Of a stretch of 18,061 bases of DNA, positions 144 through 18,061 are shown in pieces. The position numbers were made by a program, and so were the translations under genes. Each line of letters begins with the position of its first letter. Position 1 is the first letter of the stretch. The DNA is taken from contig CBFGJN010000040.1 in assembly GCA_965649115.1 (NCBI GenBank), forward strand, positions 1 through 18,061. The letters are read 5' to 3'. This DNA comes from a candidate division WOR-3 bacterium (GTDB taxonomy: Bacteria; Hydrothermota; Hydrothermia; LBFQ01; DSFT01). The notes under the pieces are model-generated. The model did not search any database. It was not told the DNA's origin and worked only from the letters and a program-made list of their open reading frames with translations.

Positions 144-1943
144 ATGGCTGAAATTACAAGAATAGCTGGTGTTCTTGTTGTTGGAAAAGGATTAAGAGGA
201 GCAAGAATGAATGAGATTGTTAAGGTTGGAAAGGAAAAACTTGTAGGTGAAATAATAAGATTAAAAGGTGATACTGCTTATATTCAAGTTTATGAAGATA
301 CTTCAGGACTTTTCGTGGGTGAGCCAATTGAGAGAACAAATGAATCATTAGCAGTTGAACTTGGTCCTGGTTTACTTGGAAAAGCATTTGATGGAATACA
401 AAGACCATTAGATGTTATAATGAATAAAGTTGGTCCTTTCATAACAAGAGGTATAGATATTCCTGCACTTGATTATGAGAAAAAATGGTTTTTCAAACCA
501 ATTCTTAAAGTTGGTGATAAAGTTAAATTGGGTTATATAATTGGTGAGGTTCAAGAAACACCATCAATTGTCCATAAAATAATGATTCCACCAAATTTAA
601 AAGGTAAAACTGAACTATCAAAAGAGGATTTAGAAGAAACTTTTACAATTTTAGATATTAAGGAAGGTGAATTTACAGTAAAAGAAACAATAGCAATTAT
701 AAGAAGTGATATTGAAAAGAAAGATTATGAGATAAAACTTTCTCATAAATGGCCAGTAAGAATACCAAGACCTGTTATAAAGAAAGAACTGCCAATTATT
801 CCATTATTAACAGGCCAAAGAATTCTTGACACACTATTCCCAATTGCTCTTGGTGGAAATGCTGGTCTTCCTGGTGGTTTTGGAACTGGAAAAACGGTAA
901 CAGAACAAACTCTAGCAAAATATGCTCTCGTTGATGTTGTAGTATATATAGGTTGTGGTGAAAGAGGAAATGAAATGACAGAAGTTCTAACAGAATTTCC
1001 ACACCTTGAAGACCCTTCAAGGCCAGGAGCACCTCTAATGGACAGAACAATATTAGTTGTTAATACATCAAATATGCCCGTTGCTGCAAGAGAAGCATCT
1101 ATATACACAGGTATAACACTTGCGGAGTATTATAGAGATATGGGATATAATGTTTTACTTTTAGCTGACTCAACAAGTAGATGGGCTGAAGCATTAAGAG
1201 AATTATCTTCAAGACTTGAAGAAATGCCTGGAGAAGAAGGTTATCCAACTTATTTATCATCAAAATTAGCTGCGTTTTATGAAAGAACTGGAAGAGTTAA
1301 AACATTAAGTAATTTTGAAGGTTCTGTAACTGCTGTTGGAGCTGTATCTCCACAAGGTGGAGATTATTCAGAACCTGTAACCCAATCAACACTTAGAGTT
1401 GTAGGAGCATTTTGGGCACTTGATTCAAACTTAGCAAGAAGAAGACATTATCCTGCAATAAATTGGTTAAGAAGTTATACACTTTATTATCCATTAATTG
1501 AAAAATGGTACAAACAAAATGTAAATGAGAGATGGAGTGAGCTTAGAAACTTCATCAGCAGTATATTACAAAAAGAAGCAGAATTACAAGATATTGTTCA
1601 GTTAATAGGTCCTGATGCTTTACAAGAAATGGAAAGATTAATTCTTGAAATTGGAAAAATTATAAGACTTGGTTATTTACAACAAAACGCATTTAATCCT
1701 ATTGATGCAAGTTGTTCATTAAAAAAACAATTTTTAATGATGAAAGCAATTTACGATTTCTACAATATCCTTAAATCTGCTATTGAAAGTGAACTTATAT
1801 CTGCTGATGAAATTGAAAAATTGCCACAAGTTGAAAGAATTATAAGATTAAAGGAAGTAGAGGAGGACAAAGTAGAAGAAGAAATAAACAATATCCTAAA
1901 TTCTTTAAAAGAAGAACTAAATCAGAGGGAAAAAGCTGCTTAA
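144..1943 (+). CDS. atpA: V/A-type ATP synthase catalytic subunit A
   Basis: Walker [50 protein letters not shown] and [10 protein letters not shown] motifs; 599 aa including the V/A-type non-homologous region. Confidence 0.98.
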
Positions 1944-3597
1944 TATAATTCTTTCTCAAATACTAATAATTAAAGAAATAAATATCAACGGAAATAATTT
2001 TTTTAACAAAAAAGAAATTTTTGAAATACTAAAAATAAAAGAAAATTCAGAGTTTAGTAAAGTTAGACTAAAAAGTGCAATTTCAAGACTATATAGCAAG
2101 TACTATTCTTTCGGTTTTTTCAATGTTAAAATAAATTACAATTATGAGTTTTTGGAGATGGGAAATGTTGTTATAAGTATAAACATAGATGAAGGTAAAA
2201 GATTTTATATAAAGGAAATTCAATTTGAAGGAGACAGCTTATTAGATACTCTTATTCGCATTATCCCGAAAAAATTACCAATTGCTTATTCTGATGAATT
2301 TGTTAATAATTTTGAAAGTCAAGTTTATTACCTTTACTACAATAATGGATTTCCTTTTGTTAATATATTAAGAGATACCATTCTTGAAAGTGATAGTTTA
2401 ATAACGATTAAGGAGAAAATTAGTGCAGGTAAAAGGATAATAATAAAGCAAATAAAAATTGAAGGAAATAAAAAAGTAAGAGATGCTATATTTTTTAAAG
2501 AAATCACAATAAAAGTTCCAAGCTATTTTAACTATAATCAAATCATTCAATCAATTCAAAGAATATATTCTTTGAGGTTATTTAAAAGTGTAAATTATAA
2601 AATTGAAAATGATAGCATTTTAGTCTTTCAAGTGGTTGAATCACCTGAAAGATATTTAGAAACAAATTTTGGTTTTACATATCCTTACTTTTTAAATATC
2701 AGTTTTCTTATCGGACACTTAAATATATTTGGAAATGTCCAGAATTTAGAACTTATAACAAATGGACTTTTTAGTTGGACAGATAATAAAATTTTATTAA
2801 ATGATAGGTTAATTAGTTTAAATTTTAGAGAACGATATTTTCTTGATATGAAAAATTTATTTCTTAACTCAAATATCATTTATAGTAAAACAGGTCAAAT
2901 TGGGCAGATTGAAGACTACGGTAAAATTGAAGAAATTGGATTAAATGCTGAAATTTTAAGACAATTCTCAAATTACTTTTATAGTGCTTTTAGCATATTG
3001 TTAAAAAATAGTATAACGCTTGGATATGAAGATAGAAGAATTATATTAACATTATCTCAAAGAGTTGTTTATGATGATAGAAATAGCTATTTAGATGCTA
3101 CAAAAGGTTTTGTTTCAAGTTTTTCAATTTCAGAAGCTTTCATTCAAGCAAAATTTATAAAACTTAACGAATTGTATTCAAAGTACTTTTATAGTTTTGC
3201 ATTTAGGATAAGGATGGGTCAAATTTTTGGCAGTGATATTCCGTATTCTGAAAAATTCTTTCTTGGAGGTGAAGGAAGTGTTAGAGGTTATTTAAACAAT
3301 TCAATTGGAGAAACTTTTGATAACTTGCAACCTGCAAGTAATCATTATATAAATGGTAATTTTGAATATAGATGGAGATTTAGCGATTTTTTTGGAATTA
3401 CATTTTTTTATGATTTTGCTATCGTTTCAAACGAATTTATTAATTTAATAAGAAACAATGTTTATAGTGGCTATGGAATTGGATTTCGTTTTTATATTAA
3501 CTTTATACCCATCCGCTTTGATTTCGCGTTAAATCCAGATTCAAAAATTTTACCAAAAGATTTATTTATCTATTTTAGTATAGGACAAATGTTTTAG
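1936..3597 (+). CDS. Omp85 (BamA/TamA) family outer-membrane protein with POTRA domains; start extended upstream of the ORF-track call (2152) to a CTG
   Basis: POTRA-like repeats ([27 protein letters not shown]), [12 protein letters not shown] loop motif, C-terminal FSIGQMF. The frame is open from 1921 (TAA at 1918-1920); CTG at 1936 follows AGAGGGA at 1924-1930. Family is confident, exact start less so. Confidence 0.9.
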
Positions 3598-3616
3598 AAA
3601 TTTGTTTTAATGAACC

Positions 3617-3822
3617 TGCTTTGTCCAATAATTATTGTTAAGCGATTGATAATCAATAATTTATAAAATTTTTAAGGAAATTGTTGATTTATTGGGGGGA
3701 TTATTAGGGGGGCTTCGCCCCCCAAAAGCAAAAAACGGGTATTTTAAAGCCGAAGGCTTAAATTTAGGGTGGGTGGGGAAAATATAGAAATAATCATATT
3801 TTTAGAATTACTAGACAAAACA
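3617..3822. mobile_element. Intact MITE-like element (copy B, 206 bp)
   Basis: Terminal inverted repeats TGCTTTGTCCAATAATT (3617-3633) and AATTACTAGACAAAACA (3806-3822) match at 14/17. Flanked by the exact direct repeat TAATGAACC (3608-3616, 3823-3831). No coding capacity. Confidence 0.85.
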
Positions 3823-3850
3823 TAATGAACCTTATTTTTTGCTTTAAAAT
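3812..3850 (+). promoter_or_regulatory. Putative leaderless promoter of ptsH: TAGACA-N27-TAAAAT-N7-GTG
   Basis: Hexamers at 3812-3817 and 3845-3850; start fixed at 3858 by His15/Ser46 numbering. Confidence 0.65.
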
Positions 3851-3857
3851 TTTAGAA

Positions 3858-4127
3858 GTGTATTACAAAAGGGTAGTAATTGTTAATAAACTTGGAATCC
3901 ATGCAAGACCTGCTACAAAAATTTCGGAAATTGCAAATAAATTTAATTCTGAAATATATATAGAAAAAGATGGAATTTGTGCAAATGCCAAAAGTATCTT
4001 AGGGATATTGATGCTTGTTGCTCCTAAGGGAACTGAACTTATAATAAGAGCAGAAGGACCAGATGAAGTTGAAGCTGTTGAAAGCATAGCAAAACTCATA
4101 GAAGAAGGATTTGGTGAAGAAATATGA
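3858..4127 (+). CDS. ptsH: Phosphocarrier protein HPr
   Basis: GIHARPA and NAKSILG motifs. Starting at GTG 3858 places the phospho-His at residue 15 and the regulatory Ser at residue 46, the canonical numbering, so 3858 rather than 3825 is the start. Confidence 0.96.
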   Translation: MYYKRVVIVNKLGIHARPATKISEIANKFNSEIYIEKDGICANAKSILGILMLVAPKGTELIIRAEGPDEVEAVESIAKLIEEGFGEEI

Positions 4128-5650
4128 ACGAGAAAATAAAGAAATTGGAAGAATTGAAAAAGAAAGCATATGAAGGTGGAGGAAAAAGCAAAATCGAAGA
4201 ACAACACAAAAAAGGCAAATTAACAGCAAGAGAAAGATTAGAGATATTATTAGATGATTTTGATGAAGTGGATTTATTTGTTGTCCATCAAGCTCATGAT
4301 TTTGGAATTGATAAAAAGAAATTCTTAACAGATGGGGTAATAACGGGTTTTGGAATTATTGATGGTAGAAGAGTAGCAGTATTCTCACAAGATTTCACAA
4401 TATTTGGAGGGACAGTATCAAAAACAAATGCTCAAAAAATTGTAAAAATTATGCAAATGGCTCTTAAAGTTGGAATTCCTATAATAGGTTTAAATGATTC
4501 AGGAGGAGCAAGGATACAAGAAGGTGTATCAGCACTTGGAGGATATGGAGATATATTTCTACATAATGTTTTAGCAAGTGGTGTTGTTCCTCAAATATCA
4601 GCAATACTTGGACCTTGTGCAGGTGGAGCGGTTTATTCACCAGCCTTAACTGACTTTATATTTATGAAAAGAGAAACAAGCTATATGTTCATAACAGGTC
4701 CAGATGTTGTAAAAGCAGTAATGCACCAAGATGTAAGTTTTGAAGAGCTTGGAGGAGCAGATGTTCATGCAAGCATATCAGGAATAGCTCATTTTGTTTA
4801 TGATAAAGAAGAAGAATTATTATTATCAATTAGAAAACTTTTAACTTATTTACCTTCAAATAATTTAGAAAATCCACCTTTTGTTCAAACTGATGATGAT
4901 CCAAATCGTGAAATTCCCGAATTAGATGATATTATTCCAATAGAACCAACTGAACCATATGATGTAAAGGAAATTATTAAAAAAGTTTTAGATGAAGAGA
5001 CATTTTTTGAAGTTCAAGAAAATTTTGCTCAAAATATTGTAATTGGATTTGGAAGAATTGGAGGACATGTAGTAGGAATTGTAGCAAATCAACCTTTACA
5101 TTTATCAGGTGCATTAGATATTAAGGCATCTGTAAAAGCTTCAAGATTTGTTAGATTTTGTGATTGCTTCAACATACCAATTATAACATTTGTTGATGTT
5201 CCTGGATTTATGCCAGGTGTTGAGCAAGAACATGGTGGAATTATTAAGGAAGGAGCTAAATTGATTTTTGCTTATGCAGAAGCTACTATTCCAAAAATAA
5301 CAATTGTTTTAAGAAAAGCTTATGGAGGAGCTTATGATGTAATGGGAAGCAAGCATTTAAGAGCGGATATCAATTTAGCTTGGCCAAGTGCGGAAATAGC
5401 AGTTATGGGACCAGAAGGAGCAGTTAAAATTCTATATAAAAAGGAAATAGAAAAACTTGAAAATTTAAATGAGTTTATAAAAGAATATAGAGAAAAATTT
5501 GCTAATCCTTATTATGCTGCAAGTTTAGGATTTATAGATGATGTTATAAGACCTTCTAAAACAAGAAAAATTATTTACAATTATCTTCAACTTCTTGAAA
5601 ATAAAAGACAAACATTACCATATAAAAAACATTCAAACGAACCCCTGTGA
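4124..5650 (+). CDS. Acyl-CoA carboxyltransferase subunit (propionyl-CoA carboxylase beta / methylmalonyl-CoA decarboxylase alpha family)
   Basis: GKLTARER, DSGGARIQEG, GPCAGGAVYSPALTD, DVPGFMPG, RKAYGGAY and C-terminal KKHSNEPL; ATGA overlap with the HPr stop. Confidence 0.95.
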   Translation: MNEKIKKLEELKKKAYEGGGKSKIEEQHKKGKLTARERLEILLDDFDEVDLFVVHQAHDFGIDKKKFLTDGVITGFGIIDGRRVAVFSQDFTIFGGTVSKTNAQKIVKIMQMALKVGIPIIGLNDSGGARIQEGVSALGGYGDIFLHNVLASGVVPQISAILGPCAGGAVYSPALTDFIFMKRETSYMFITGPDVVKAVMHQDVSFEELGGADVHASISGIAHFVYDKEEELLLSIRKLLTYLPSNNLENPPFVQTDDDPNREIPELDDIIPIEPTEPYDVKEIIKKVLDEETFFEVQENFAQNIVIGFGRIGGHVVGIVANQPLHLSGALDIKASVKASRFVRFCDCFNIPIITFVDVPGFMPGVEQEHGGIIKEGAKLIFAYAEATIPKITIVLRKAYGGAYDVMGSKHLRADINLAWPSAEIAVMGPEGAVKILYKKEIEKLENLNEFIKEYREKFANPYYAASLGFIDDVIRPSKTRKIIYNYLQLLENKRQTLPYKKHSNEPL

Positions 5651-6744
5651 AAATTGCTATATTTTCTGAAAGTTTTCTACCCTTAAAAACAGGTGTTGCA
5701 AAATTCACATATGATTTATGCTATTACTTAAAGAAAAGAGGACATGATGTTATTTTGATAACAGGAGATTTTGGAATTAATTACAATTTTGATTTTGAGG
5801 TTGTAAGAATTGGAAAAATTTCAAAAATTTATGCTAATGGAAGTTGGACTTATTTTATATTACAAAATCCTATTTCTTTCTATGAGAATTTAAAGAAAGT
5901 TTTAAATTATTATAAAATTGAAATTTTTCATAATCAGGGACCTCTTGGACCACCATATTCTGTATTAAGTTCATTTTTTGCTAAAAAAATAAACAAAAAC
6001 ATAAAAACAATTGGAACATTTCACTCAAAACAAATGAAAATAACCACTAGCTTAAAGCTATATTCAAATTTTGTTAAAAAATTCATAAATTACAACGATA
6101 TTTTAACCGCTCCAAGTAAATCAACTGCTAATGAAATGAAATATATATTTAATGTAAATCCTATTGTAATTCCAAATGGTATAAATTTAGAAAAATTTAA
6201 TTGTAATTGTAAAAAATTTGAAGATAATTCATTTAAAATTTTGTATGTTGGAAGACTTGATTATAGAAAAGGTGTTGATATTCTTTTAAAGGCATTTGAA
6301 AAAATAAATAATGATAAATTTGAGCTTTGGATTGTAGGAAGTGGTCCTTATAAAAAAATTGTTCTTGAATACATTGAAAAATATAAAAATATAAAACTTT
6401 TTGAAAATGTTGAAGATGAAGAATTAGTTAATTTTTATAGTAATTGTGATATTTGTGTTTTTCCAACAAGAGGAGGTGAGGCTTTTGGCATTGTCTTGCT
6501 TGAAGCATTTGCTTGTGGTAAGCCTGTAATATGTTCAAACATAGATGGTTATAATGAGGTTGCTAATGAAGATTGTGCTTTATTTTTTAAGAATATGGAT
6601 TATGAAGATTTAGCAAACAAAATTCTTTTGTTATATAATAATAAAAATTTAAGAGAAAAACTTTCAAAAAACGCCCTTCAAAGAGCTAAAAATTTTGATT
6701 GGAACAAAATTGTTTTAGAATTTGAGAAGACATATCTTATATAA
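5647..6744 (+). CDS. Glycosyltransferase family 4 (GT-B, PimA/RfaB-like)
   Basis: MKIAIFSESFLP..GV N-terminus, VIPNGI, YVGRLDYRKG, and GGEAFGIVLLEA (EX7E motif); GTGA overlap with the upstream stop. Confidence 0.93.
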   Translation: MKIAIFSESFLPLKTGVAKFTYDLCYYLKKRGHDVILITGDFGINYNFDFEVVRIGKISKIYANGSWTYFILQNPISFYENLKKVLNYYKIEIFHNQGPLGPPYSVLSSFFAKKINKNIKTIGTFHSKQMKITTSLKLYSNFVKKFINYNDILTAPSKSTANEMKYIFNVNPIVIPNGINLEKFNCNCKKFEDNSFKILYVGRLDYRKGVDILLKAFEKINNDKFELWIVGSGPYKKIVLEYIEKYKNIKLFENVEDEELVNFYSNCDICVFPTRGGEAFGIVLLEAFACGKPVICSNIDGYNEVANEDCALFFKNMDYEDLANKILLLYNNKNLREKLSKNALQRAKNFDWNKIVLEFEKTYLI

Positions 6745-6844
6745 TTTTCTATATTTTGCTCACCCACCCTGAATTTAAGCCTTCCGCTTATAAATGCCCA
6801 TTTTTCGGCAGAGGGGGGCTTTGCCCCCTGAATTCCTCCATAAA
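6741..6844 (-). repeat. Internal fragment copy C of the MITE-like repeat, inverted, between convergent genes
   Basis: TTTCTATATTTTGCTCACCCACCCTGAATTTAAGCCTTCCGCTT...GGGGGGCTTTGCCCCC is the near reverse complement of 3690-3795. Confidence 0.85.
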
Positions 6845-6852
6845 GTCCATAT

Positions 6853-7279
6853 TCAGTCGTTTGGGTCAAGTGGAGGACAAGTACACTCGTAATAACAGGC
6901 TCCACTTGTACAACCTGCAAGGGGGCAGGTTATCCAATGATGACAATATCTTTCATAACTATAACAAGTCACAATGTACAGAGAGCAATGAGAACAACCC
7001 TTTTTTCAAAATTTTGAAATTGTTTATTTCTTTAACCTTACAAGATGCATTATTCAAAAATATTGAAAATTGATAGTTGTAGATTTTGTTTTTTGAGATA
7101 AAAGCAAGCGTATAAGACTCGTTATTTTTAGCAATAGTAAATAGGTCTTTATTTTCATGACTAAAAAGCTTATCTTCAATAAGATAAAACATTTATTTAT
7201 AAGTTGTACCTTGCAAAGACTTATTAAGGGGATTTACAAATAAACTGATTTGTGTGTAATAAAGTCCCCCAACCTCAAA
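6853..7279 (-). pseudogene. Interrupted ORF: 77-aa ORF (7192-6959) preceded by an in-frame stop and followed, after a +1 shift, by a 48-codon frame with 9 Cys
   Basis: Minus-strand translation of 6999-6853 gives GCSHCSLYIVTCYSYERYCHHWITCPLAGCTSGACYYECTCPPLDPND*. It joins the upstream ORF if one base is removed from the A6G3 run at 7006-6998. 28 further open codons precede the TAA next to ATG 7192. Confidence 0.45.
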
Positions 7280-7280
7280 A

Positions 7281-10130
7281 TTATTTCACATAAAATTTTG
7301 TCCTTTGATCTTCAACATCAACAATATATGCTCCCGACTTTAAATTATTATCAATCGTTATTTCATTTATACCTTTCAATTTAACATCAAATTCCTTTTC
7401 AAGGACGATTCTTCCTGAAAAATCAAAAATTCTTATTTTGTAATTTTTTATCTCATCTGCATAGAATCTAATTGTAAATTTTTGACTTTGCTTAATAGGA
7501 TTCGGATAAACTAAAATGTTAATTTTTTTAATACTTGGAAAATCTGAAATCTCATTATAATTTAAAAATGAATAAAATAACCGATTATTTGAGATTAAAG
7601 ACCAAAAATAAATGTTATTTTTAATATCAGAATAAGCAAAAGTACTATCTGTTATTATTGGATAAACTTCATTAAAACCTTTTGAGTAGTTAAAAATGAA
7701 TGAATTGAAAATGATATTTGTATCTGAACTTAAAGCAAATGAAGTTCTTTCACTTATAAAGCCCATCAAAGCACCGTTGAAATCATATTTATAAATTCCA
7801 TTTTTTGTAATTACTAAAATTCCATTTTGAAAATAACTTAAAGCAATAGGCTTACTTTTTAAACGGACTTGATTTAAAACATCTAAATTTCTATTTAGTA
7901 TCCAAAGATAATTATTTGTAGCTGTAAAAATTCTATCTTTTAAGATAATAGGCATTATTTCAATAGGATTTGGTAAAATTTCAAGTTCTTTTGATTTTAT
8001 TATATTTAATTCACCATCAATAATATAGAATGTTCCATCAATTCCTTGAAGATAAATTGTATCATTTTTAATTAAGAAACATGTTGAAATAGGAAAGCTT
8101 AAATAAACTGACTTATAAATTGTTTGACTTACTGGATTAAATAAAATAAGTTTTCCTTCATCTGTTCCAAAAAGGATATAATTTTTTAGTTTTCTTAAAC
8201 AACTTCTAATTGGAAAATTAACATTCTTTGTCCAATTATTTGAAAATGTGTTTGAAATTAAAAAACTATATAAATTACCATCAGTTCCTCCTAAATAAAC
8301 CTCATAAGTTCCATTATTATCAAAGTCTTCAATAATCGGTGGATATTTAAATAAATAGGGATAGAATGTGAAATCTCTAAATTGAATGAATGTTTTAACC
8401 AATGGTTGATTATAATAGCTTTGACCATTCTTTTTAAAAAGATAAAGTTCAGAGTAAATTCTAACGCTATTTGTATTTTTATCAAGTGTATCAATATGAC
8501 CATCAAAAAGAACAATAATTAAGCTATCTTTTAAATTAAAAAATTGCCTTTGAAACTTATAATTTTCATTACCAAAATAAATTTTTGATAATTTTTCATT
8601 TTTAATTTTAAAACTCATAATGTTTGAAACACTCGATATATCGTAAATTTCAAAACCTGTCAATTTATTTTCATTTGATTTGATTGAAGGATAAGTGAAA
8701 TCACTTATGCTATTTCTATTACCATTATAAAATGGATCATATTTTGAACCTTTCCAACCTTCTGGAAACTTTATAAAATATTGAAAATCTGGAACGCCAT
8801 CTGCTTCAATTAAAACAACACCCATTGGTCTATTACTTTGAAAATCAGGCCCTAAACTATCTATGATATTCCTATCAACATGCCATATTAAAATTCCTTC
8901 ACCAGGTAAGGCATAATCCCATTCCTCATCATATATACCAAATATTAACGAACTATCATTATTGTAAATAAAATTAACTTTTTTATCTTCAATTTTTTCT
9001 CTTTTTCTAAACTCAATTAAAAGATATTCTTTATTATCAAATTCAATTTTATAAAATTGTGGATAAAATGAAGATGGAAGGATATTAAATACTTGTTCAT
9101 TTTTAGAAGGTTGAATTTTTACAAGTTCATTAGGCATAATAATTCTTTGACATGATGGACAAATTAAATTTAATATGCTATCCATATAAATTTTTGTATA
9201 TGCACCTGGTAATGTCGGTAAATAACCCTCTGGAATGTTATCAATATCTCCACCATAACCACCAACAGCCATTAAATCAAAATAACCTGCTCCTGTCCCA
9301 AGTCCCGAATAATCATATAAATCATCAACAAAGAAAATTAAGTGATTTAATTCATGAACAGCTGTTCCTTGAAGTCCTATATTTAAACCATCTTGTCTTA
9401 GTGTTTGTGGAATTAATGTTGCATCATAAATTGTATCATTTCCATTATTCACAATAATATAAGGTTCTCCAAGATAATAATCTAATGCTCCTGCAAAAAT
9501 TGTAAGAGCTGGCAAATCATAAGGTGTATCACCATTTACATCAGTTTGATAAGCTGAACCTGCATAAAATATAACAATTCTTCTAAATATAAGCTCACCA
9601 GGTTGTGGATTACAATAAGCTAAATTATTATTTGAAAATATACCCATTTGATCAGCACTTCTAATAGCATCTCTAAAAAATGATGTTATACCTTGTGCGA
9701 AAAATCCTAAATCTCCATAATATCTAATTTTATGTGGAACTTTAACAATAGGAGAAACTGAATATTTAAATTTAATTCTATGATAAGTTGCAGAGAGAAA
9801 GTAATTTTTTGAAAACTCTAAAATTGAAGAAAAATATAAGCTATCATAAGGTGGTTTGAAATCAAAAGTTCCCTTAATACCATAACTTGTTGTATCAAAT
9901 GTTCCATCACCAGTAGTAAGTGGATCATCGGGGATTTCTTTTTGAAATTCAACTCTTAATGCCAATATACAAATTGTTAAGGTATCGTTTTGAAAAGTAC
10001 CAAATTTATTTTTATAAAATTTAAGTTGGTTTATCCTTTTATTGAAAAATAGCATTTGCTTTTCAACATAAGAAAATTTTTCAAATAGCTTTTTATTTAA
10101 ATCCAAATTGCTAAAAAGAAATAAAATCAT
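7281..10130 (-). CDS. Secreted M6 (immune inhibitor A)-like zinc metalloprotease with beta-propeller-like region and T9SS/Por-type C-terminal sorting domain
   Basis: ILALRVEF, HELNH..DDLYD zinc motif (9356-9342), FDLMAVG Met-turn-like, EYLLIEFR, GILIWHVD, LIEADG; C-terminal VYPNP...IRIFDFSGRIV...LKSGAYIV. Confidence 0.88.
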   Translation of the reverse strand: MILFLFSNLDLNKKLFEKFSYVEKQMLFFNKRINQLKFYKNKFGTFQNDTLTICILALRVEFQKEIPDDPLTTGDGTFDTTSYGIKGTFDFKPPYDSLYFSSILEFSKNYFLSATYHRIKFKYSVSPIVKVPHKIRYYGDLGFFAQGITSFFRDAIRSADQMGIFSNNNLAYCNPQPGELIFRRIVIFYAGSAYQTDVNGDTPYDLPALTIFAGALDYYLGEPYIIVNNGNDTIYDATLIPQTLRQDGLNIGLQGTAVHELNHLIFFVDDLYDYSGLGTGAGYFDLMAVGGYGGDIDNIPEGYLPTLPGAYTKIYMDSILNLICPSCQRIIMPNELVKIQPSKNEQVFNILPSSFYPQFYKIEFDNKEYLLIEFRKREKIEDKKVNFIYNNDSSLIFGIYDEEWDYALPGEGILIWHVDRNIIDSLGPDFQSNRPMGVVLIEADGVPDFQYFIKFPEGWKGSKYDPFYNGNRNSISDFTYPSIKSNENKLTGFEIYDISSVSNIMSFKIKNEKLSKIYFGNENYKFQRQFFNLKDSLIIVLFDGHIDTLDKNTNSVRIYSELYLFKKNGQSYYNQPLVKTFIQFRDFTFYPYLFKYPPIIEDFDNNGTYEVYLGGTDGNLYSFLISNTFSNNWTKNVNFPIRSCLRKLKNYILFGTDEGKLILFNPVSQTIYKSVYLSFPISTCFLIKNDTIYLQGIDGTFYIIDGELNIIKSKELEILPNPIEIMPIILKDRIFTATNNYLWILNRNLDVLNQVRLKSKPIALSYFQNGILVITKNGIYKYDFNGALMGFISERTSFALSSDTNIIFNSFIFNYSKGFNEVYPIITDSTFAYSDIKNNIYFWSLISNNRLFYSFLNYNEISDFPSIKKINILVYPNPIKQSQKFTIRFYADEIKNYKIRIFDFSGRIVLEKEFDVKLKGINEITIDNNLKSGAYIVDVEDQRTKFYVK

Positions 10131-11602
10131 CCACTAATAAACCTATTTAAAACATTATTAACAAAATCAAGGACAATTGAAGGATAAATTCCTATAAAAA
10201 TTACAAGAACTAAACATAAAGCAGTTATGAACAATGGTAAATAAGCAAATTTAACCTCCTTTTCGCCATCAGAGAAAACATAATAAACTACTCTTAAATA
10301 ATAATAATAAGAGATAACACCATTAATAAAGAGCCAAATTGCAAGTCCAATATCACCAACATTGACAATAGAATAAGCAATATAAAATTTCGCAAAGAAA
10401 CCTGCAAGGGGAGGGATACCTGCAAGTGAAAGCATAAATAAAGCAAAGCTAATTGCTATAAATGGACTTTTCTTATATAAACCTTTTAAATTTTCTATGC
10501 TTGTGTCATCTTCAGCTACCATTTGAACAATTGAAAATGCTCCGAATGTTGTTATTGTATAAATGAATAAAAATAATATAATTGATTTAAAACCTTCAAT
10601 TCCTCCCGAATAAATTGCTGTTAATCCATAACCAGCATTAGCAATCGTTGAAAATGCTAATAATTTTTTAATACTATTTTCTCTTATAGCAGCCAAATTA
10701 CCAATAATCATAGTAAAAACACTAATCCATAAAATTAAATCTTCCCATAGCTTTGGATATGAACTAAAAACACCTTGAAACAGTTTTAGAACAATTGCAA
10801 ATGCAGCCGCTTTTGATATTGTTGAAATATAACTTGCAGTTGGAGATGGGGAACCTTCAAATACATCAGGTGTCCAGAAATGAAAAGGAACAGCAGATAA
10901 TTTAAAACCAAGACCCACAATTAGAAATCCTATTGCGATAATTGATAAGAAATCCTTTGATTTAAGTAATCCAAAGAAACTTCTAAAAGCATAATTTTGA
11001 AATAAACTCTCAAATGACAAACTACCACTAACAAAATATAGAAATGCTATTCCTACTATCAAAAAGGAGCTTGAAAATGCCCCAATAAAAAAGTACTTTG
11101 TTGCTGCTTCATAAGAAAATAAACTTCTTTTATATCCTACAAGAGCATATAATGAAAACGAAAGAATTTCAAGTGATAAAATAAAAACTGCCCAATTCTC
11201 ACTTTTTGGAAGCAACATTGAACCAAGAAGAGCAGAAAATATAAGGAAATAATAATCACCACCAGACCTATTTTTATAATAATCATAAGATAGCATTACA
11301 AAGAAAATTGTTCCAATTAAGAAAATTAAATCAAATAATCTTTCAATTGGTCCAAATTTTAAACTTTCAATTATATATTTTGCATATTCATAATTTTGAG
11401 CAGTTTTAAGTAATTCTTGAAAAAACTCCTTATTCATTTTAAGTAACTGTTCAAAAACAAAATAGGTTGAAATAAATAAAAGAATTAAAGAAATCAAAAA
11501 AGCTATTAAACCTTTCCTTGGAAAAAGAATTTCTATAATTAAAAGTAATATAATACCAATTGAAACTGTTATTTCAGGTGAAAAGAAGTAAAAGATGTTC
11601 AT
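10127..11602 (-). CDS. nuoN: NADH-quinone oxidoreductase subunit N
   Basis: Polytopic membrane protein with EAATKYF, GFKLSAVPFHFWTPDVFEGSP, SLAGIPPLAGFFAKF and YYYLRV. Confidence 0.96.
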   Translation of the reverse strand: MNIFYFFSPEITVSIGIILLLIIEILFPRKGLIAFLISLILLFISTYFVFEQLLKMNKEFFQELLKTAQNYEYAKYIIESLKFGPIERLFDLIFLIGTIFFVMLSYDYYKNRSGGDYYFLIFSALLGSMLLPKSENWAVFILSLEILSFSLYALVGYKRSLFSYEAATKYFFIGAFSSSFLIVGIAFLYFVSGSLSFESLFQNYAFRSFFGLLKSKDFLSIIAIGFLIVGLGFKLSAVPFHFWTPDVFEGSPSPTASYISTISKAAAFAIVLKLFQGVFSSYPKLWEDLILWISVFTMIIGNLAAIRENSIKKLLAFSTIANAGYGLTAIYSGGIEGFKSIILFLFIYTITTFGAFSIVQMVAEDDTSIENLKGLYKKSPFIAISFALFMLSLAGIPPLAGFFAKFYIAYSIVNVGDIGLAIWLFINGVISYYYYLRVVYYVFSDGEKEVKFAYLPLFITALCLVLVIFIGIYPSIVLDFVNNVLNRFISG

Positions 11603-13059
11603 TTTTCACCTCCTTTTTTTATAATACTCACAATATGTTCAGAAGGTTTTTGTAAAAATTTAAAAATGAAATTTGGATATATTCCAATAGAAAAAATAAG
11701 AATAATTAATGGCGTTAAGATAAACCATTCTCTTATGTTCAAATCTTTGATTTTTTCAAATTTAATTTCAAGATATGATATTTTCTGAAATGCAGGAAGC
11801 ATATAAATAACAGAAATAACAATTCCTAAAACTGCAAATATAGCCCAAGAAAAATTCTTCAAACTTACACCAAGAAGAATAAGAAACTCTCCAATAAATC
11901 CATTAGTTCCAGGAAGACCGACTGATGATAACATAAATAAACCAAAGAAAACAATTAAAACAGGAACTGTCTTAGCAAGACCTCCAAATTCAGAAATACT
12001 ATTCGTTTTAAATCTTTCATATAGAAATCCTGAAACTAAAAATAAAGCAGATATTATTATTCCGTGATTTAGAATTTGGATACTTGCTCCATTTATTCCA
12101 TAACTATTTAGTGAAAATATTCCAAGTGTAATAAAGCCCATATGTGAAAATGAAGAAAAAGCAATTAACCTCTTAAAGTTATCTTGAACATAAGCCATAA
12201 ATCCACCATAAATGATTGAAATTATTGATAAAATAGCAAAAATATAAGCATAATCAATTGAATAACTTGGAAATAGAGGAATTAAAAATCTTAAAAAACC
12301 ATAACTTCCAATTTTTGCCATAATACCTGCAATAATTAATGCCACACTACTTGGAGCGTTAGTATAAGCATCAGGAAGCCATGCATGGAAGGGGAAAATT
12401 GGTGTTTTTACAGCAAAAGCAATTGCAAAGGAAACAAAAATTAGTAATCCTAAATTATCTTTTAGTAGTGGAATTTGTTCTAATAAATCCAAATAATTTA
12501 AAGTCCTAAATTGTAAGTAAATGATAATTATTGAAACAATAAGTAAAACAGAAGCAAAAGCTGTATATAATAGAAATTTAAAACTTGCTTTAACTTTATC
12601 ATTATCACCCCAAATTAAAATTAAAAAATAAGCAGGAATTAAAGAAAATTCGTAAAAAACAAAAAATAAGAATAAATTTAGTGAAGAAAAAACACCAACT
12701 AATGAACCAGTTAAAAACAAATACCAAAACGCAAATTCATTTTCTCTATTTTTAATTAAATTAATTGAAGAAAGAAAGCCTAAAAAAGATAAAAATGTTG
12801 TTAAAACAATAATTAGATAACTTAAACCATCAACGCCAAGATAGTAATCTATATTTAGACTTTCTATCCATTTATATCTCTCAATAAATTGGAAATTCTC
12901 AGAAAAATTAAAATTTCCAAGAGGTAAAAGACTTAACAAAAATTCAAATAATAGAACAACAGACGACCAAATCCAAACAAAGTTCCTATTCTTTATAAGC
13001 AGTAAAAGCAAAGATGAAAAAATAGGGAAAAATATAAGAATAGTTAAAATCCCATTCAT
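11599..13059 (-). CDS. nuoM: NADH-quinone oxidoreductase subunit M
   Basis: LGVDGLS, FFVFYE, AFAVKTPIFPFHAWLPDA, KRLIAFSSFSHMG and GLPGTNGFIGEF motifs; AGGAGG ribosome-binding site at 13071-13066. Confidence 0.96.
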   Translation of the reverse strand: MNGILTILIFFPIFSSLLLLLIKNRNFVWIWSSVVLLFEFLLSLLPLGNFNFSENFQFIERYKWIESLNIDYYLGVDGLSYLIIVLTTFLSFLGFLSSINLIKNRENEFAFWYLFLTGSLVGVFSSLNLFLFFVFYEFSLIPAYFLILIWGDNDKVKASFKFLLYTAFASVLLIVSIIIIYLQFRTLNYLDLLEQIPLLKDNLGLLIFVSFAIAFAVKTPIFPFHAWLPDAYTNAPSSVALIIAGIMAKIGSYGFLRFLIPLFPSYSIDYAYIFAILSIISIIYGGFMAYVQDNFKRLIAFSSFSHMGFITLGIFSLNSYGINGASIQILNHGIIISALFLVSGFLYERFKTNSISEFGGLAKTVPVLIVFFGLFMLSSVGLPGTNGFIGEFLILLGVSLKNFSWAIFAVLGIVISVIYMLPAFQKISYLEIKFEKIKDLNIREWFILTPLIILIFSIGIYPNFIFKFLQKPSEHIVSIIKKGGEK

Positions 13060-13065
13060 TTTCTT

Positions 13066-13095
13066 CCTCCTTTTGAAAAGTTCAAAATTTTATAG
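13066..13095 (-). promoter_or_regulatory. Putative -10 box (CTATAAAATTTT) and AGGAGG ribosome-binding site of nuoM
   Basis: Minus-strand TAAAAT at 13092-13087 in the same context as the other -10 boxes, followed by a short leader with a strong Shine-Dalgarno. Confidence 0.55.
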
Positions 13096-13156
13096 CTTAA
13101 AAAATTTTCATAAGAACACAAAAGCCGCCAGCAGAAAAATGAGTATTCTAATGATT

Positions 13157-13217
13157 TAATTTATAAAAATTTTTTTGAAATTATGGGCGGGAAAATAAAG
13201 AATTATTGGACACAGCA
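13157..13217 (+). repeat. Internally deleted copy D of the MITE-like repeat
   Basis: TAATTTATAAAAATTTT (as at about 3657-3673) joined to TGGGCGGGAAAATA..AGAATTATTGGACACAGCA (right end). Confidence 0.75.
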
Positions 13218-13243
13218 AAAAATCCAAATTTAAACTTTAAAAT
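13207..13243 (+). promoter_or_regulatory. Putative leaderless promoter: TGGACA-N25-TAAAAT-N8-GTG
   Basis: Hexamers at 13207-13212 and 13238-13243; GTG at 13252; no Shine-Dalgarno. Confidence 0.6.
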
Positions 13244-13251
13244 TTCGCAAA

Positions 13252-13974
13252 GTGATTACTTTTCTTTTTTCTACAATTGTAAGGCAGGAAACTTTTGGTA
13301 TTTCAAGTTTTCTAATTCCTGATGAAAATGAAAGAGTAGTTTTCCCATCTTCACAAACATTATTTTCTAATGTTATTCAATTTGAAATTACATATAAAAG
13401 TGCATTTTTTACATTTCCAATCCTTGAAAATTTAAATTATAGTTTTTATTTTGATACAATTTATGGAATTGGCACAGCTTATAAATTTGAAAATTTTTCA
13501 TTAGGCTTTAATGGTTTTAAGTTAGATAGTGAATTTTTGTTTAATTTTGGTGCTTATGTAAATTACAATAATTTTGAAAGTAAGTTTTCTTTAAATTATA
13601 AAAATAATCAGAACTTTGGTTTAAGAAGTTTTTTTAAATTGTCATTCTTTGAGCAATATAGCTCAAGATTATATTTAGAATACCAAAATAATTTAGATGC
13701 TATTATTGGAATTTTTTATGAACCTTCTAAATATAGATTTTTAAGTTTTGGATTATCAAAAATTGATAATAACTATTTTTCTTTTAGTAGTTTAGAAGTC
13801 TTAATTTTTAGAGATTTTTTAACACTTAGAGGGAGTGTTTATGAAGACCTTAAAAACAATAAGTTATTCTTAAATTATGGCTTTTCAATAAGTTATGAAA
13901 ACTTGAGAGGTGATTTTATTGTAAATAAAGATGCTTTCAAGTTGGGAATTTATTATAAATTTAATATGTTTTAG
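13252..13974 (+). CDS. Hypothetical protein, probable outer-membrane beta-barrel
   Basis: 240-aa ORF rich in aromatic residues and Gly with alternating amphipathic strands (FSLGFNG, FNFGAYVNY, LNYGFSISY, FKLGIYYKF) and a terminal Phe. Confidence 0.65.
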   Translation: MITFLFSTIVRQETFGISSFLIPDENERVVFPSSQTLFSNVIQFEITYKSAFFTFPILENLNYSFYFDTIYGIGTAYKFENFSLGFNGFKLDSEFLFNFGAYVNYNNFESKFSLNYKNNQNFGLRSFFKLSFFEQYSSRLYLEYQNNLDAIIGIFYEPSKYRFLSFGLSKIDNNYFSFSSLEVLIFRDFLTLRGSVYEDLKNNKLFLNYGFSISYENLRGDFIVNKDAFKLGIYYKFNMF

Positions 13975-14014
13975 TTTATTTTAATAGTTGAATGATTGCT
14001 GGATTTTTAAGAAA

Positions 14015-14087
14015 TAAAGCTGAAAGCTTATTTTCAGGGTGGGAAAAATAAGAAATAATGATATTTTCAGAATTATTGGACATAGCA
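14015..14087 (+). repeat. Partial copy E of the MITE-like repeat (right half)
   Basis: TAAAGCTGAAAGCTTATTTTCAGGGTGGGAAAAATAAGAAATAATGATATTTTCAGAATTATTGGACATAGCA aligns with 3745-3822. Confidence 0.85.
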
Positions 14088-14115
14088 CCCCCAAAGCATA
14101 GTTATCGTTTAAAAT
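14077..14115 (+). promoter_or_regulatory. Putative short-leader promoter: TGGACA-N27-TAAAAT-N11-ATG
   Basis: Hexamers at 14077-14082 and 14110-14115; ATG at 14127. Confidence 0.6.
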
Positions 14116-14126
14116 TTTCTATACTT

Positions 14127-14441
14127 ATGATTTTGCTTTTTATAAATTGTATATGTCAAAATTTAAATTTCTTTCAAGCTCTTGAAAAAGCAGATATGGT
14201 ATTTGAGGGGATTTTAGTAAAAAGTGATAGTTTATTGACTTTTAAAGTTATAAATTCTATAAAACAAACAAGTGATACACTTTTAGTAATTTATAATGAT
14301 AATGAATGCCCCTATAACTTTGAATTGAATAAATTATATAGGGTTTTTGTTAAAAAGGAGGGAAATAAATTAATAACAGATAAATGTTTTGGTAATGAAA
14401 AGATTGAAGATTATGAGGAAATTAGAGACTATTCAGAATGA
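14127..14441 (+). CDS. Small exported protein of TIMP/NTR-like (OB-fold) type
   Basis: CxC near the N-terminus followed by ADMVFEG, ECPYNF...YRVF and a fourth Cys (DKC), the pattern of prokaryotic N-TIMP homologues. ATG 14127 is preferred because ATG 14058 lies inside the repeat, upstream of the -10 box. Confidence 0.7.
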   Translation: MILLFINCICQNLNFFQALEKADMVFEGILVKSDSLLTFKVINSIKQTSDTLLVIYNDNECPYNFELNKLYRVFVKKEGNKLITDKCFGNEKIEDYEEIRDYSE

Positions 14442-17657: not shown

Positions 17658-18061
17658 TTTATGGAGGGTTTGATCCTGGCTCAGGGTTAACGCTAGCAGC
17701 GTGCCTTAGCCATGCAAGTCGTGCGGGCTGGGGGCAACCCCAGTCAGCGGCGGACGGCGGAGTAACACGTGACTAACCTGCCCCTAGGAGGGGGATAACC
17801 CACCGAAAGGTGGGCTAATACCCCGTACTGTGGATGGGTGAAATTCCCATCCATGAAAGAGGGCCCTCTGGGCTCTCGCCTAGGGAGGGGGTCGCGGCCC
17901 ATCAGCTAGTTGGTGGGGTAAAAGCCCACCAAGGCTATGACGGGTAGCCGGCGTGAGAGCGCGGCCGGCCCGAGGGGCACTGAGACACGGGCCCCACCCC
18001 TACGGGGGGCAGCAGGCTGGAAATTTGGGCAATGGGGGAAACCCTGACCCAGCGACGCTGC
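17658..18061 (+). rRNA. rrs: 16S rRNA gene, 5' part (runs off the window)
   Basis: AGGGTTTGATCCTGGCTCAG at 17665-17684, CATGCAAGTC, GAGTAACACGT, CAGCTAGTTGGTGGGGTAA, CACTGAGACACGG and CCTACGGGGGGCAGCAG; 5' end approximate. Confidence 0.99.

Follow-up and report, generated by a model that had tools for sequence, protein, structure and literature searches.

In the genome of a Hydrothermia (WOR-3) bacterium, hereafter G000, some 100 non-lipoprotein envelope proteins appear from their sequences to carry an export signal that has been reduced to its hydrophobic core, or h-region, and the probability that these short leaders are genuine Sec signal peptides is put at about 0.6. The leaders are exemplified by a stretch of DNA of 18,061 nucleotides (the window), which is the entire contig C40 of G000, a hot-spring metagenome assembly of 1.85 Mb in 99 contigs that is 94.5% complete and has ca 27% GC. 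Four predicted exported proteins are encoded in the window, namely a BamA-like protein, an M6-like metalloprotease, an outer-membrane beta-barrel and a small protein resembling the tissue inhibitors of metalloproteinases (TIMP), each of which begins with Met and 5–6 I/L/F residues. Sec signal peptides are ordinarily tripartite (n-h-c), 18–30 residues long and furnished with a basic n-region.

The short leader is a genome-wide feature. Open reading frames (ORFs) were called crudely, as the longest ATG/GTG/TTG frame of ≥ 90 amino acids (aa) with overlaps greedily removed, giving 1642 ORFs. A strict pattern, comprising Met and six uncharged residues with a mean hydropathy of ≥ 2.5, then residues that are not hydrophobic, without any membrane segment further on, is found at 89 of these 1642 N-termini as against 20 of 3848 internal Met positions, which is a tenfold difference. 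With the start permitted anywhere in the first 16 codons the count becomes 122, of which 111 are left when those that merely begin within a classical signal peptide are subtracted. These filters miss the beta-barrel and TIMP-like genes of the window itself, and the counts are therefore conservative. Moreover, the first hydrophobic run ends most often at residues 6–9 (24, 40, 33 and 39 ORFs), while an internal-Met control is flat.

The leaders are uniform in character. Their length is 7–9 residues, against the usual 18–30, and the hydrophobic run occupies 5–8 residues in most of them, at or below the lower bound of the ca 7–15 residues of an h-region; POTRA, DUF4159 and CarboxypepD_reg domains begin at residues 9–11. 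Positions 2–6 are nearly all I, L, F or V, position 7 is mostly L or S and position 8 mostly Q. In 76 of 115 leaders the Met is followed directly by I, L or F (K takes that place in 16 of a looser set), and Lys and Arg are absent from residues 1–7 by definition of the short-leader set, such that there is no positively charged n-region. Gln is found at positions 8–10 in 37 of 108 leaders, where 8% would be expected; 21 of these 37 have S, G, A or T just before it, at −1, and 31 have L or I at −3. Of the 108 leaders, 69 meet an acidic residue before any basic one, and the net charge of residues 8–22 is −0.37 in the short-leader set as compared with +0.38 over all ORFs.

With regard to initiation, an in-frame stop lies within 5 codons upstream of the start in 84 of 115 leaders. 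A TA[AT]A[AC]T hexamer, usually inside CTTTAAAATTT, is found 6–10 nt before the start of 435 of the 1642 ORFs, and by this token about a quarter of G000 mRNAs would seem to be leaderless or nearly so; when translated, this hexamer motif yields a recurrent ‘NFK’ or ‘LKF’ just ahead of Met. The hexamer precedes 30 of 122 short-leader genes and 405 of 1520 others, and a Shine–Dalgarno (SD) sequence precedes 35 of 122 and 329 of 1520, respectively. Since these shares are similar in both sets of genes, the leader belongs to the protein and not to initiation.

Within the window, all four N-termini are present as the original prediction described them, ultra-short and uncharged, and the in-frame stops which it held to bar longer N-termini in three of the genes were found at 1918–1920 (TAA), 10136–10134 (TAG) and 13231–13233 (TAA). 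Overall, what pins down each start is an in-frame stop, an overlap with the preceding gene, a ribosome-binding site or a motif resembling a promoter. The BamA-like gene (POTRA and Omp85 domains; 1936–3597, plus strand) has a putative leader at 1936–1956, (M)LNIILS, followed by Gln. Its frame is open from 1921, and ATG, GTG and TTG are all absent from it until 2152. The CTG at 1936 overlaps the end of the V-type ATPase A gene, the stop of which is at 1941–1943, and has an SD-like AGAGGG (1924–1929) 6 nt upstream, the stop and this motif together occupying 1918–1929. The first POTRA domain comprises residues 11–87 and, with any start codon whatsoever, at most 12 residues are possible ahead of it. 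Both the CTG and the upstream in-frame TAA are kept in a BamA-like gene, 88% identical at the protein level, from a metagenome-assembled genome (MAG) of a Candidatus Hydrothermia bacterium. BamA-like orthologs in two further genomes of the class, G048 and G063, likewise have no canonical start in at least the first 75 codons.

The M6-like metalloprotease, which ends in a type-A C-terminal sorting domain of the type IX secretion system (T9SS), is encoded on the minus strand (7281–10130) and has the leader MILFLFS (10130–10110). Its ATG at 10130 overlaps the stop of nuoN (ATGA, 10127–10130), with the TAG two codons upstream, an arrangement suggestive of translational coupling between the gene of the secreted protease and the end of the nuoM–nuoN unit. 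The beta-barrel protein (13252–13974, plus strand; 240 aa, ca 16 strands) starts at a GTG and has the leader MITFLFS (13252–13272). The segment before it (13231–13251) holds the TAA and the promoter-like CTTTAAAATTT (13235–13245), in which a TAAAAT at 13238–13243 ends 8 nt before the GTG. The small TIMP/NTR-like protein (14127–14441, plus strand; 104 aa) has the leader MILLFIN (14127–14147), followed by an invariant C-x-C. A further in-frame ATG, which the original prediction did not mention, is present upstream at 14058. Inside the extension from 14058 stands a promoter-like TAAAAT (14110–14115, part of a TTTAAAATTT motif, in the segment 14110–14126), ending 11 nt before the ATG at 14127, and the ‘RLKFSIL’ of the longer ORF is there because this promoter motif gets translated. 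The orthologs, five out of five, are called as proteins of 103–106 aa from the equivalent of 14127.

Among orthologs, the length and hydrophobicity of the leader are conserved while its sequence turns over. Those of the barrel, at 49–54% identity, begin with MLLITIS, MFLITVS and MLFYLIS, in which S7, T8 and I9 are invariant; those of the TIMP-like protein begin with MI[LMI]LLI(SL)N and then C-[IV]-C, with leaders of 7–9 residues. Protease homologs number 974 at E ≤ 1e-3, and among the top 55, of which the N-termini were inspected, many are 14–34 residues longer and have classical signal peptides; a relative of 53% identity begins with MEILIVSF. Relatives of G000 were compared by means of unbiased samples of 80–180 kb and the same ORF caller. 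In G078, which is of the same order and has 57% GC, 10 of 98 genes have short leaders (19 of 172 by a more permissive classifier); these leaders are rich in L, V and A and include those of orthologs, as in MLILLALLK-IARLQYEGGGDWY against MLFLLFSFQ-IARLQYEGGGDWY in G000. More widely, a gradient of leader length is seen when the orthologs of the BamA-like and DUF4159 proteins are compared over 81 WOR-3 genomes, from 7–8 residues in G000's own order, through 11–16 uncharged residues in many other families (for example MGLLLFILILLGQFQ-IARLKY), to classical signals in some families. A signal peptide without an n-region would thus seem, by comparison of these sequences, to be a tendency of the phylum of which the order of G000 is the extreme.

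Among the proteins that carry the short leader and have a Pfam match, most belong to envelope families. Matches to the T9SS C-terminal domain number 45 in G000, of which 3 lie at contig edges; the N-termini of the remaining 42, sorted by a fixed rule, are short and uncharged in 24 cases, clearly classical in 6 (for example MKKFIFTFLVFLSLANA) and of other kinds in 12. The latter failed thresholds or were assigned an incorrect start too far upstream, although a number of them (MLYFILNLPQ, MLLYFFSSQ, MGWLIFNQ) are visibly of the short type. Pfam searches were made for 41 of 48 short-leader proteins in 20 genome tiles, 7 evident lipoprotein or classical artefacts being left out. A match was obtained for 26 of the 41, at least 16 of them to envelope or secreted families: S8 (two), SurA-type peptidyl-prolyl isomerase, TonB-receptor-like barrel, OmpA, YfiO/BamD, FG-GAP, NHL, GSDH, DsbA-like thioredoxin, LVIVD, CBM_4_9, GWxTD, FlgT_N and Por_Secre_tail (three, one of which is also S8).

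Classical signals are found in the same genome. Lipoproteins, ca 57 by hand count, have an MKK or MRK n-region and a Cys at about residue 15–20, while ca 18 non-lipoproteins have classical charged signal peptides, often ending in A|Q, and 3 have signals of Tat-like RRxFLK type. The coexistence of classical and short signals in one genome implies that the machinery handles both kinds. Arg is absent from the short leaders, and with it any twin-arginine motif, and a lipobox-like motif is seen in only 3 of 111. In this regard, the proposal of the original prediction that the lineage uses minimal signal peptides is strongly supported genomically, by the genome-wide envelope class, the conserved length and the relative of 57% GC, with the amendment that the lipoproteins and the ca 18 others remain classical.

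It had also been proposed that the Sec/SPase system (SPase, signal peptidase) of this lineage might be modified, and that SecA, SecY, LepB and Ffh should be inspected for unusual features. No such modification was seen. SecY, SecA, YidC, LepB and LspA are each single in G000 and have canonical family scores: LepB matches TIGR02227 at 147 bits (cut-off 47), SecY scores 339 bits over the full length of its model, and SecA, of 1016 aa, has a DEAD domain of 365 bits. No paralogs of SPase I, SecY or SecA were found in G000, and nothing in the sequences is grossly unusual. YidC ends 6 residues (FLLKGG) after its domain and has no ribosome-binding basic tail. Among six genomes without the signal recognition particle (SRP), the YidC tail is longer and basic only in G028 (39 residues, net +6) and G055 (23 residues, net +4), and YidC is single-copy in 80 of 81 WOR-3 genomes. 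A type-I glutaminyl cyclase (PF05096) was not found in the 94.5%-complete G000, in which two M28-family genes are present.

Ffh, the last of the four components, went undetected, and its absence together with that of FtsY and SRP RNA is the change that can be seen in the targeting apparatus. The Ffh M domain (PF02978) has no match in G000; the SRP54-type GTPase profile (PF00448), which detects both Ffh and FtsY, reaches only 22.5 bits at best, over the P-loop; and a tblastn search of G000 with three Ffh and three FtsY sequences from SRP-bearing WOR-3 gave a best E of 0.07. In the phylum sample of 81 genomes PF02978 is present in 46, PF00448 in 55 (mostly in two copies) and SRP RNA (RF00169) in 49; most families outside the class possess these components, and it is the same families that go without each of them. 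The 15 genomes in that sample which belong to the class are all without Ffh, FtsY and SRP RNA, including some that are 99–100% complete and in 3–4 contigs. The three components were likewise not found in the WOR-3 families f8, f20, f21, f23 and f29, and families f14, f18 and f22 have one weaker GTPase match with neither M domain nor SRP RNA. Among 31 genomes of the class, drawn from 11 families and 15 genera, PF00448 gave only three weak matches (27–29 bits) and the large SRP RNA (RF01854) none in 31; Ffh, FtsY and SRP RNA were found in none of these genomes. Named control genomes, by contrast, gave both protein families in 14 of 14 and RF00169 in 12 of 14. These surveys are of genome samples, mostly metagenome-assembled. 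Given that three components are concordantly absent across lineages, real loss is the likeliest explanation, in other words a natural, clade-wide disappearance of the SRP pathway from the Hydrothermia class, as judged from these searches. The SRP is generally regarded as universal.

A route by which the short leaders could act as Sec signals can be sketched. The leader consists of Met, five to seven I/L/F/V residues and a small or polar residue after which Gln often comes, having no charged n-region and barely any c-region. SecA would deliver the short-leader proteins to the single SecYEG, post- or co-translationally and independently of SRP, and the single LepB would cut after about residue 7 at a small residue, often exposing Gln. 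High hydrophobicity and an acidic early mature region may replace the N-terminal positive charge in orientation. The lipoproteins would keep long charged signals, plausibly because Lgt and LspA need a stable membrane-spanning anchor. Sec translocation, cleavage together with its exact site, and any causal link to the loss of SRP are what would have to be inferred from the pattern. The evolutionary extension of this route, according to which the class lost SRP and the order of G000 cut most of its SPase-I-type signals to an uncharged h-region of ca 7 residues, is tentative, and we would put it somewhat short of even odds.

Several points weigh against reading the leaders as Sec signal peptides with this origin. 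The leaders breach two textbook features of Sec signals, the basic n-region and the length of 18–30 residues, and a helix of seven residues is too short to span the bilayer. Before the enriched Gln, 13 of the 37 leaders have a hydrophobic residue (L, F, I or V) at −1, which is poor for SPase I, and cleavage at the Gln site is therefore not general. Classical signal peptides coexist with the short leaders, and therefore the latter are not bound to the same route. Three of the 26 Pfam-annotated carriers are cytoplasmic enzymes in which the first beta-strand mimics the pattern, and the short-leader set is therefore impure. The BamA-like gene probably starts, to judge from its sequence, at a non-canonical CTG coupled to the V-ATPase A stop. 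Furthermore, SRP status is no predictor of the trait: the SRP-bearing G004 and G052 show convincing short uncharged leaders, and the SRP-less G058, G006 and G063 have few or none. By the permissive classifier, which is noisy in that Rossmann-type N-termini leak in, short leaders number 0–12.6 per 100 ORFs in 13 SRP-less genomes and 0–9.0 in 10 SRP-bearing ones. Loss of SRP as a simple rule behind leader shortening is thus unsupported, both leader types crossing SRP status. A basic YidC tail as compensation for SRP loss is likewise rejected for G000, given its tail of 6 residues.

The same facts bear on the alternatives. If the short N-termini directed export and escaped SPase I, they might remain weakly anchored in the inner membrane's outer leaflet or be taken off by a different protease; or else the proteins might come to the translocon other than by classical SecA recognition, for example through YidC or ribosome docking on SecYEG. 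The hydrophobic −1 in about a third of the Gln-bearing leaders would then be expected, as would the finding of a small residue at positions 6–8 in only 78 of 122 leaders; targeting must be unusual in any case with SRP missing, and the long signals of the lipoproteins suggest that short ones behave otherwise in the membrane. Against this, outer-membrane barrels (the BamA-like, TonB-receptor-like and 240-aa proteins) and T9SS cargo have to get free of the inner membrane, processing sites are suggested by the invariant junctions S7-T8 and N-C-x-C, the alignment of Cys8 of the modelled TIMP-like protein with a mature Cys1 fits a free N-terminus, and the YidC of G000 is without a ribosome-binding basic tail. 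On balance such an uncleaved or differently handled leader is unlikely, though it is the foremost competitor of the Sec signal peptide proposed here.

Explanations that deny the leaders an export role altogether fare worse. Longer, normal signals might have escaped ORF calling because of frameshifts, read-through, starts at non-canonical codons or faults in the assembly, and it is true that the BamA-like gene is without a canonical start, that the TIMP-like gene has an upstream in-frame ATG and that G000 is a MAG of 99 contigs. However, the closeness of the upstream stops in 84 of 115 leaders, the SD or promoter-like motifs at short starts, the same starts obtained from independent assemblies and gene calls, and the recurrence of the pattern in relatives that were sampled elsewhere, some of them with genomes closed to 3–4 contigs, make a start-site artefact very improbable; translation table 4, moreover, does not lengthen the frames to any useful degree. 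An alternative genetic code, considered separately for the window, was rejected on the grounds that table 11 fits and table 4 gives no meaningful extension. Still more improbable is that the leaders are a compositional by-product, without export role, of the T-rich codons (ATT, TTT, CTT, TTA) of a genome of 27% GC. G000 is indeed very AT-rich and I, L and F dominate the leaders, but the pattern is ten times rarer at internal Met, the carriers are mostly of envelope families, and the cytoplasmic V-ATPase A, carboxyltransferase and RecJ of the window do not have it. Relatives of 57% and 54% GC have L/V/A-rich versions (MVLLLAMS, MLLLVVQS, MILVLLTA) and, as the trait is found in the relative of 57% GC, AT bias is no explanation for it. 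The Sec signal peptide reduced to its h-region accordingly remains the preferred reading.

The family assignments of the four window proteins vary in firmness. Those of the Omp85 protein and the beta-barrel stood as originally made. In the BamA-like protein, PF01103 (Omp85) scores 80.5 bits (cut-off 24; 2.1e-22) and PF07244 (POTRA) 64.8 bits (cut-off 21.3; 1.2e-17), both exceeding the Pfam cut-offs, while the score against the equivalog TIGR03303 (149.9) is under its cut-off of 297 and the gene is therefore BamA-like, not proven BamA. The barrel label is confirmed by the predicted fold: the AF2 model of the 240-aa protein (predicted local distance difference test, pLDDT, 71) has strands across residues 41–236, with residues 1–25 unstructured, and Foldseek gave 29 PDB matches at E ≤ 1e-3, those listed being transmembrane beta-barrels, nearly all of them bacterial outer-membrane proteins. 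All eight members of the family end in Phe, a terminal Phe being the usual outer-membrane beta-signal.

The other two labels stood in part. The protease has, above cut-off, the T9SS sorting domain (PF18962 Por_Secre_tail, 37.7 bits, cut-off 27; TIGR04183, 33.8, cut-off 23), which adds to the earlier label; it is provisionally called M6-like on an HELNH motif and the sub-cut-off matches to TIGR03296 (42.9, cut-off 110.8) and NF052323 (144.7, cut-off 600). For the 104-aa protein, sequence-family profile searches gave no match, and fold matches lend the TIMP-like label moderate support, short of proof. The AF2 model is weak (pLDDT 55), VIA-align ranks the N-domains of TIMP-1 and TIMP-3 first (Z 7.0–7.5, root-mean-square deviation 2.9–3.4 over 86–88 residues), followed by other NTR modules, and the Foldseek E-values are weak at 0.04–0.1. 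In this model of pLDDT 55, residue 8 (Cys) aligns with Cys1 of mature TIMP-1. The family comprises 6 proteins, all in close WOR-3 relatives, with 4 invariant Cys including those of C-x-C. A TIMP/NTR-like fold is plausible on this modelling and, encoded 4 kb from the M6-like metalloprotease, the protein may be a bacterial metalloprotease inhibitor. A reading of it as a lipoprotein is disfavoured, the Asn at −1 (...IN-C) being atypical.

The gene order of the window is V-type ATPase A, BamA-like, HPr, carboxyltransferase, GT4 glycosyltransferase, M6-like T9SS protease (minus strand), nuoN and nuoM (minus strand), the 240-aa protein, the 104-aa protein, RecJ, a Wzz-like protein and the start of the 16S rRNA, the 5′ end of which is at 17658–18061; no tRNAs or other RNAs besides it were found in the window. 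Next to the V-type ATPase A gene, and overlapping it, comes the BamA-like gene and no B subunit (144–3597), and the 88%-identical relative is arranged alike. The ca 530 bp that separate the GT4 gene from the protease gene's end (6750–7280) contain two short overlapping ORFs only, with no match in Pfam or Rfam. Sequence words of the window matched 13 DNA datasets, mostly hot-spring metagenomes. An upstream element, GAATTATTGGACACAGCA (13200–13217, plus strand), has a second copy, GAATTATTGGACATAGCA, at 14070–14087. It belongs with a dispersed repeat of core TTATTGGACA(A/C)(A/G)GCA, of which there are 295 copies in G000; one form of the repeat (TTGATAATCAAGGACTTAACA..TTATTGGACAAAGCA) resembles a small intergenic repeat element, and another (..AGAATTATTGGACA..) sits ca 25–30 nt upstream of the TAAAAT motif in many genes.

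If the leaders are indeed Sec signals, the lower limit of Sec/SPase I leaders would lie far under the textbook value, and a leader would need neither to span the membrane nor to possess a basic n-region nor to be recognised by SRP. Signal-peptide predictors are trained on the n-h-c design, and WOR-3-like secretomes, including T9SS cargo, proteases and carbohydrate-active enzymes, would be badly underestimated. Very short leaders could also serve as minimal secretion tags. The absence of SRP, for its part, would be a natural counter-example to universality and a system in which to study SRP-free targeting of membrane proteins, and it bears on genome-quality marker sets that count ffh and ftsY. 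In the literature covered, outside of which lie subscription journals, no account was found of lineage-wide ultrashort signal peptides or of natural SRP loss in WOR-3.

As to SRP-less growth elsewhere, the biogenesis of membrane and secretory proteins is reported to continue without Ffh and FtsY in Streptococcus mutans mutants (PMC8546722) and in E. coli suppressor strains (PMC7844537, 10.1101/2021.01.06.425660). These strains are laboratory-made, whereas the absence in Hydrothermia is natural, class-wide and found in free-living, two-membrane, hot-spring organisms. In S. mutans the loss of SRP is compensated by a second YidC with a basic tail; G000, unlike it, has a single YidC with a tail of 6 residues.

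The leaders themselves share several traits with known signals. They resemble Sec/SPase I signal peptides in being N-terminal on envelope proteins, in having a hydrophobic core often followed by a small or polar residue, in preceding a mature part that is poor in positive charge, and in their fast sequence turnover with retention of character; they differ in the h-region of 5–7 residues, in a −1 residue that is often not A, G or S, and in occurring in an SRP-less lineage. With lipoprotein (SPase II) signals they have in common their shortness and a conserved residue at the end, as in the ...N-C of the TIMP-like leader, but the lipoproteins of G000 have MKK/MRK n-regions and leaders of 15–20 residues. 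Gln at +1 of SPase I substrates, the so-called Q-rule, is described as restricted to Bacteroidetes (PMC5837995, PMC10653852). Gln at +1 is also common after the classical signals of G000 (..LNAQ, ..AYAQ, ..GWAQ), which is the Q-rule outside Bacteroidota. The likeness of the short leaders to the Bacteroidetes pattern lies in the enrichment of Gln after them and in the prominence of T9SS cargo among the proteins that they precede.

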